This document shows, piece after piece, positions 44,779 to 44,806 of a stretch of 64,000 bases of DNA. Below the pieces are notes generated by a model, which made no database searches, was not told where the DNA came from, and saw only the letters and a list, made by a program, of their open reading frames with translations. The DNA lies in the NCBI RefSeq assembly GCF_003334385.1, contig NZ_QOWN01000023.1; one strand, given 5' to 3'. Position 1 is the first letter of the stretch, and the number at the start of each line of letters is the position of its first letter. This stretch comes from Escherichia coli (GTDB lineage: Bacteria; Pseudomonadota; Gammaproteobacteria; Enterobacterales; Enterobacteriaceae). Both the position numbers and the translations under genes were made by a program.

Positions 44779-44806
44779 AGGAGGTATAATCCGTCGATTT
44801 TTTTTG
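44779..44806 (+). promoter_or_regulatory. upp promoter -10 (TATAAT 44785..44790) and initially transcribed GATTTTTTTTG tract (UTP-sensitive reiterative transcription)
   Basis: Eight-T run immediately downstream of a perfect -10; matches the described upp pyrimidine-control mechanism. Confidence 0.65.

Follow-up and report, generated by a model that had tools for sequence, protein, structure and literature searches.

The T-tract promoter and conserved intercistronic terminator of the Escherichia coli upp-uraA operon

The window, by which we mean the whole 64-kb stretch of DNA that was analysed, is a piece of the E. coli chromosome, and its positions 44524-45560 are 100% identical to the purM-upp-uraA junction of K-12 MG1655 (NC_000913.3). 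The same region is present, and annotated as upp, uraA and purM, in 5426 of 5426 complete E. coli genomes. The element discussed here is the characterised upp-uraA locus itself, already described, and not a relative of it. The genes and the signals at the start of the operon are laid out as follows.

44508, minus strand: start of purM in purN/purM, the upstream neighbour of upp
purM-upp intergenic region: 324 bp
44763-44768, plus strand: –35-like hexamer TTGCCG, with a 16-bp spacer to the –10 and a promoter-scan score of 10/12
44785-44790, plus strand: perfect –10 hexamer TATAAT
44791-44795, plus strand: G+C-rich discriminator CCGTC
44796 and 44797, plus strand: start positions G (sixth base after the –10, productive) and A (seventh base, reiterative)
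44798-44805, plus strand: T8 slippage tract, followed by G at 44806
44796-44832, plus strand: 37-nt upp leader, with the Shine-Dalgarno sequence AAGGAG at 44820-44825
44833-45459, plus strand: upp, uracil phosphoribosyltransferase (ATG at 44833, stop at 45457-45459)
upp-uraA spacer: 85 bp
45545-46834, plus strand: uraA, uracil:H+ symporter (ATG at 45545, stop at 46832-46834), transcribed by read-through from the upp promoter
3' of uraA, plus strand: hda, giving the gene order upp, uraA, hda

A direct reading of positions 44779-44806 gives AGGAGGTATAATCCGTCGATTTTTTTTG. An earlier note on this DNA, made from the letters alone, had pointed to a perfect TATAAT followed by a T tract at the upp start, which is correct to the base, and had read the arrangement as one in which UTP drives reiterative transcripts and alternative start-site choice, which matches the mechanism published for the identical K-12 sequence (PMC7039003; PMC12709180); the functional element had thus been recognised and read correctly without other help. 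Because 44524-45560 is 100% identical to MG1655, the T8 tract is the published initially transcribed region (ITR) of upp-uraA. PMC7039003 quotes it as 'upp-uraA (5'-GATTTTTTTTG)' among the E. coli promoters, together with pyrBI and codBA, at which RNA polymerase slips after a few bases, and states that the reiterative RNAs made at such promoters are at least 30 nt long and never switch to canonical transcription. In the window this sequence, made up of the G and A starts, T8 and the following G, occupies 44796-44806. A second account holds that slippage at codBA and upp is triggered indirectly, via start-site switching under excess UTP, and is non-productive (PMC12709180). Ladders of AUUUU(n) products that depend on UTP, and a choice of start that moves with UTP, are both published for the upp promoter, in the form of secondary statements in these two papers (PMC7039003; PMC12709180). 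The 5'-end mapping under high and low pyrimidines and the 3'-end mapping that the earlier note proposed have largely been done already in the literature. The UTP dependence, the choice between G and A starts and the non-productive ladders are taken from that literature; the sequence identity, the positions, the conservation, the placing of the transcript ends, both 5' and 3', and the finding that uraA has no promoter of its own come from the present analysis.

The upp-uraA promoter was reportedly the subject of two dedicated studies, by Tu & Turnbough in 1997 (J Bacteriol 179:6665) and by Cheng, Dylla & Turnbough in 2001 (J Bacteriol 183:221). Tu & Turnbough are said to have found that high UTP favours starts at the A (position 7), which lead to slippage and release, and that low UTP favours starts at position 6, the G, from which elongation proceeds. 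Cheng et al. 2001 reportedly tied the regulation of upp to the tract as slippage site, and upp-uraA is said to have been described as a bicistronic operon by Andersen et al. 1995. We take the assignment of G as the productive and A as the reiterative start to be that of Tu & Turnbough 1997, and the regulation is also reported to depend on the length of the tract.

Long-read mapping of capped transcripts places the 5' end of the operon at genome position 2,620,909, which is window position 44796, the G (SMRT-Cappable-seq; PMC6131387). The three transcript units listed there, b2498, b2498|b2497 and b2498|b2497|b2496 (upp, upp-uraA and upp-uraA-hda), all start at 2,620,909, in independent agreement with the published productive start. 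The promoter also has each of the traits of its class: a sigma-70 –10 hexamer with purine starts 6-8 nt downstream (G and A at +6 and +7), a long T tract (T8) directly after the A start on the non-template strand, a second start, the G just ahead of this A, from which slippage is avoided, and 100% identity with an experimentally characterised promoter, that of K-12 MG1655. No result contradicting the upp promoter mechanism was met in this analysis. We hold with high confidence that in this element the E. coli upp-uraA operon has its sigma-70 promoter, with a choice between G and A starts governed by UTP, slippage on T8 and a leaky terminator before uraA.

Under the published mechanism, RNA polymerase would start at G 44796 or A 44797 of GATTTTTTTTG. 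At high UTP the A starts would be favoured, the nascent AUUU... transcript would slip back on the eight T:A pairs of the tract, U residues would be added repeatedly, and the resulting AUUUU(n) products would be released without extension. At low UTP the G starts would be favoured, elongation would be normal and upp would be made. The elongating polymerase would then meet a hairpin and U8 intrinsic terminator about 15-16 nt past the upp stop, where part of the transcripts would end, giving a 709-nt upp-only RNA, and the remainder would continue into uraA and sometimes into hda.

How exceptional the promoter motif is can be judged from counts in the window. The motif TATAAT-N5-GATTTTTTT occurs once in the 64 kb, with 0 mismatches, and 0.11 occurrences are expected even when 2 mismatches are allowed. 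The plus strand holds three T8 runs and no A8 run, against about 0.6 T8 starts expected from base composition, and two of the three are the promoter tract and the T-run of the upp terminator. A chance origin of the promoter motif is excluded, and the comparative evidence is the stronger argument. The third T8 run, at 49589-49596, reads as A8 in the coding sense of bepA, covering codons 5-7 (..LKKN..), and as such a slippage-prone homopolymer inside an open reading frame.

The comparison covered the upp loci of 80 Enterobacterales species, the 80 closest species from a scan of a genome collection, with genera that include Escherichia, Citrobacter, Enterobacter, the Klebsiella group, Kosakonia, Cedecea, Yersinia, Serratia, Dickeya, Brenneria, Pantoea, Erwinia, Hafnia, Edwardsiella and Rahnella. 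The arrangement TATAAT-N5-(G)A-T7-9 stands upstream of upp in all 80, with an invariant TATAAT. The tract is T8 in 46 species, T7 in 25 and T9 in 9; the A before it is present in 80 of 80 and the G before that A in 79 of 80. Aligned at the –10, 77 distinct sequences are 86-100% identical over the segment that runs from this hexamer to the T-run; 25-60 bp further upstream, identity drops to about 50%. The –35 region is about 80% conserved, with the consensus GTGGCG, and the discriminator is CCGGC or CCCGC in most relatives. That the –10, the spacing, the G and A starts and a tract of T7-9 are kept together in 80 species supports the published mechanism from the comparative side.

U-rich leaders can enhance translation, and the T-run does lie within the 5' UTR of the productive transcript. 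It could accordingly be proposed that the run is a U-rich leader element, bound by S1 or Hfq or acting as a translation enhancer, or else a chance homopolymer, and not a slippage tract. The chance version fails on the motif counts given above. As for a leader element, the run is locked to the –10 at exactly the N5-G-A spacing across the 80 species and follows an invariant A, whereas the distance from this A to the upp ATG ranges from 33 to 171 nt. A spacing that is fixed on the –10 side and variable on the ATG side ties the tract to the promoter and not to the ribosome-binding site. The leader itself shows no significant structure (z = +0.33 for the fold against shuffled sequences) and matches no Rfam family above threshold, which leaves no riboswitch or leader attenuator hidden in it. 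Published work, moreover, treats the upp tract as a slippage site (PMC12709180; PMC7039003). We consider this explanation of the run extremely improbable and return to the tract as the site of slippage.

Within E. coli the tract is variable in length, as noted at locus L082 (UM146) and locus L083 (strain LCP22S3_I2): T8 was found in 4942 complete genomes, T7 in 440 (about 8%, for example UM146) and other variants in 40. Among the latter is a single T6 tract, which may be a homopolymer assembly error. The sole species of the 80 without the G is Escherichia albertii NBRC 107761 (locus L001), in which a T replaces the productive G, about 37 nt upstream of upp (TATAATCCGTCTATTTTTTTTG).

Further upstream, the purM-upp intergenic region holds an additional palindrome.

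44738-44751, no strand assigned: FNR-type palindrome TTGACTAAAGTCAA, a perfect 6+2+6 repeat that matches TTGAT-N4-ATCAA at 8/10 positions, with its centre at –51.5 relative to the G start

This centre is not a canonical activating position for FNR. In 61 of the 80 species the best match to the FNR consensus (8-10/10, with 26 perfect) ends 33-34 bp before the TATAAT; a box at the upp spacing is missing in Erwiniaceae. A published FNR ChIP-seq peak lies upstream of upp (Myers et al., 2013; PMC3688515), so that FNR binding here is already known, and both a box and FNR occupancy, as looked for in an FNR-regulated promoter, are present. The effect listed from arrays is activation; ndh-like repression would be the alternative. 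On the purine side of the same region, a PurR-box-like palindrome, AAGCAAACGTTTGCGA, occupies 44572-44587; the purMN start mapped at 2,621,152 (window position 44553, minus strand) follows it at a distance of 19-34 bp, and most of the 80 loci have kept GCAAACGTTTGC.

The downstream control signals of the operon are the following.

45475-45504, plus strand: intrinsic terminator between upp and uraA, with stem AAAGCCGACTT / GAGTCGGCTTT and loop TAA (45475-45499) and T8 at 45497-45504
45505-45544, plus strand: 40-nt spacer, with the uraA Shine-Dalgarno sequence GAGG at 45533-45536
46842-46867, plus strand: hairpin after uraA, ACCGGGCAG-TGTTG-CTGCCCGGT, with a short T stretch only

The first of these bears out the terminator that the earlier note had placed between upp and uraA at 45476..45505. 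The terminator scan finds 11 pairs, 5 of them G-C, followed by T8; the hairpin folds at –15.2 kcal/mol (z = –4.2) and is kept in both the minimum free energy and the centroid structure of a 123-nt fold, in which no competing or antiterminator structure is predicted. A transcript end has been mapped by SMRT-Cappable-seq to 2,620,201, which is window position 45504, the last T of the terminator. A G+C-rich hairpin with a U-tract, an in vivo 3' end in that U-tract and a structure kept in relatives together mark it as an intrinsic terminator. The hairpin after uraA coincides with the distal transcript end of the operon (2,618,838, window position 46867, from the G start), and many reads continue past it into hda.

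Since the intercistronic terminator is real, uraA must be expressed either by read-through or from a promoter of its own, as the earlier note had put it, and the data favour read-through, which the name 'upp-uraA operon' itself suggests. The SMRT-Cappable-seq operon table gives units from 2,620,909 and none beginning at uraA (b2497), which indicates that read-through accounts for uraA expression. The rich-medium data have 24 reads that stop at the upp terminator and at least 139 (30+8+101) from 2,620,909 that reach the uraA end, all of which must have passed the upp terminator, and in M9 142 of 260 reads reach the uraA end; size selection of the library above 1 kb depleted the 709-nt upp-only RNA, so these counts prove read-through and not termination efficiency. 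The upp transcription termination site (TTS) was called in the rich-medium sheet only, and some condition dependence of termination is possible. Expression of upp and uraA changes together in arrays and in RNA-seq. The Term-seq supplements of Adams et al. (2021) contain no upp/uraA entry by gene name or coordinate among the matches listed. In Supplementary Data 1 of PMC6131387, the 'pass-through' and 'within 50 bp downstream' columns of the Rich_TTS sheet appear to be swapped relative to the M9 sheet: of the values 4 and 154 given for the upp TTS, 154 is the pass-through count, by internal arithmetic, because 139 reads reach the uraA end.

A contrary reading makes the hairpin an essentially complete terminator and lets uraA depend on a separate promoter within or close to the 3' end of upp. 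There is a weak promoter-like site at 45446-45473 (TTGGTA-16-AATAAT, 9/12), whose predicted start falls inside the 5' arm of the hairpin, so that its transcript would lack the full hairpin and could bypass termination. Two Serratia-type loci also carry an insert with a TATAAT before uraA, one of which (L054) passes the promoter scan and the other of which (L043) was recognised by eye. Yet no start is recorded at the 45446-45473 site, and its AATAAT lies in the non-conserved, A/T-rich spacer and is missing where the hairpin stands 5-9 nt past the stop. The promoter scan finds no sigma-70-like promoter in the spacer at 45505-45544, and by the same criteria a promoter-like site between hairpin and uraA occurs in only 1 of 78 loci. 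Set against the operon table and the reads that run from the upp start to the uraA end, a promoter of this kind is very unlikely in our estimation. Read-through from the upp promoter would make the permease co-regulated with upp and let it inherit the UTP sensing of that single promoter; for a gene without its own promoter in E. coli, this inheritance passes through a conserved leaky terminator. We infer that the terminator passes only a fraction of the polymerases and in this way sets the upp:uraA ratio, and the level of the uraA permease is expected to be below that of the upp enzyme.

In this terminator the sequence is conserved as well as the structure. A GCCGAC...GTCGGC-T8 hairpin stands downstream of upp in 79 of 80 species. 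A uraA start is recognisable in 78 loci, and in 77 of these the hairpin separates the two genes; its run is exactly T8 in 76 of 79. In an alignment of 50 distinct sequences 97.8% of the cells are paired, and for 6 of the 8 pairs in the scored helix the same pair type is shared by 48 or more of the 50. The changes that do occur in the stem are almost all G-U wobbles, such as the A-U pair at columns 9/19, which is G-U in five of the 50 sequences, and the innermost pair is unpaired in nine. There is almost no covariation, because the stem sequence is itself invariant. Stem and T8 are kept across Enterobacteriaceae, Yersiniaceae, Pectobacteriaceae, Hafniaceae and Erwiniaceae, also at loci where insertions have come between the hairpin and upp or uraA; over loci L001-L080 the hairpin lies 8-190 nt past the upp stop. 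The loop is not conserved. The hairpin after uraA, by comparison, covaries in the same genomes (CAG/CTG, CGG/CCG, TGG/CCA and others) and is unrecognisable outside Enterobacteriaceae. Measured against this single control hairpin, the pattern is suggestive of a terminator stem conserved in sequence beyond what its structure would require.

Several insertions surround the terminator in individual genomes. E. coli B19695 carries an IS200/IS605-family tnpA element directly after the terminator T8-G, between upp and uraA (locus L084, 1550-2290), and the original spacer resumes there at GAGTAAAGCG before uraA. An insert of about 150 nt sharing TACGCTCCGGTTTCT..GCGCTGTCCGTG lies between upp and the hairpin in three Yersinia loci (L056, L063 and L066) and two Pantoea loci (L061 and L068). 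It spans 3-150 nt past the upp stop, in unrelated genera, and resembles a short intergenic element of a repetitive or mobile kind.

One way to account for so constant a stem is that the hairpin is a regulated attenuator, responding to UTP, to transcription-translation coupling of the kind known from rph-pyrE and pyrBI or to a bound factor, and thus a second pyrimidine control specific to uraA. The near-invariance of stem and T8 across families in 79 of 80 species, beside a post-uraA control that diverges, would fit such a role, as would the calling of the upp TTS in rich medium and not in M9 and an upp stop that in many species is only 5-9 nt from the stem, within reach of the ribosome. But the distance from stop to hairpin is not conserved: in E. 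coli about 15-16 nt separate the stop from the A-U extension, and the G-C core lies at 18 nt; in most species the distance is 5-19 nt, and where there are insertions it is 94-183 nt, so that a ribosome-occluding stop distance is not found. Nor is there a U-rich pause region, the preceding RNA being A-rich, or a predicted antiterminator fold that would compete with the hairpin, and the loop varies in sequence. The difference between M9 and rich medium reflects a count threshold in a library that depletes upp-only RNA. Rfam, finally, gives no match that would point to a regulatory RNA, including the PyrR site. On balance we regard an attenuator as improbable and keep to a terminator that leaks.

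The Rfam search of the terminator returned only sub-threshold hits to STnc240, STnc430 and AbsR25 (24-28 bits, against gathering thresholds of 47-55), which are typical terminator look-alikes, and the model of the PyrR binding site (RF00515), run against the window and eight relatives, gave nothing at E ≤ 1. Two specific candidates were considered and set aside. Ribosome coupling of the pyrE type was rejected on the unconserved distance between stop and hairpin, and a PyrR-like protein-RNA switch, prompted by the Pantoea loops CCAGAGAG, was dropped when no Rfam match was found in the eight relatives.

There is a small chance, in our view, that the hairpin is recognised by a factor in a sequence-specific way, or that its read-through is finely tuned by UTP or growth conditions and sets the ratio of permease to enzyme. 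If true, this would make the hairpin more than a passive leaky terminator, and the transcript end called in rich medium and not in M9 would be a weak hint in that direction. The locus as a whole carries little weight as a discovery, because it is one of the founding examples of regulation by reiterative transcription ('repression without repressors'). Two minor points stand out besides, the constancy of the terminator stem and the unusual placing of the FNR box. Such novelty as is left resides in the invariance of the intercistronic terminator only, and that this invariance hides a new mechanism seems unlikely to us.

Among known systems, the pyrR-pyrP-pyrB region of Bacillus subtilis resembles upp-uraA in having a terminator before a uracil permease gene, beside a gene of the UPRTase family; there the pyr mRNA is bound in front of the permease gene by PyrR, itself a homologue of UPRTase. 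Unlike the B. subtilis pyr region, upp-uraA has no match to the PyrR site, a loop that is not conserved and no predicted antiterminator or anti-antiterminator. With the rph-pyrE and pyrBI attenuators upp-uraA shares a similar layout only, namely a translated ORF, an intrinsic terminator and a pyrimidine gene; it differs from them in that the coupling geometry is not conserved (5-183 nt) and in having no U-rich pause region. At the level of initiation the likeness is closer. The E. coli pyrBI promoter (ITR AATTTG; Liu, Heath & Turnbough, 1994), like that of upp, shows UTP-dependent non-productive reiteration, but it has only three T's and no start switching, high UTP acts directly (PMC12709180), and pyrBI has a separate translation-coupled attenuator. 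The E. coli codBA promoter (ITR ATTTTTTG; Qi & Turnbough, 1995) combines UTP-sensitive start switching with non-productive U addition on a long T tract, just as upp does, and both serve pyrimidine salvage or uptake operons; codBA is a different operon outside the window, with T6 in place of the T8 of upp and a different arrangement of the alternative starts. The upp-uraA promoter of E. coli K-12 is the same sequence without differences, with the matching ITR GATTTTTTTTG and its productive start at the G.
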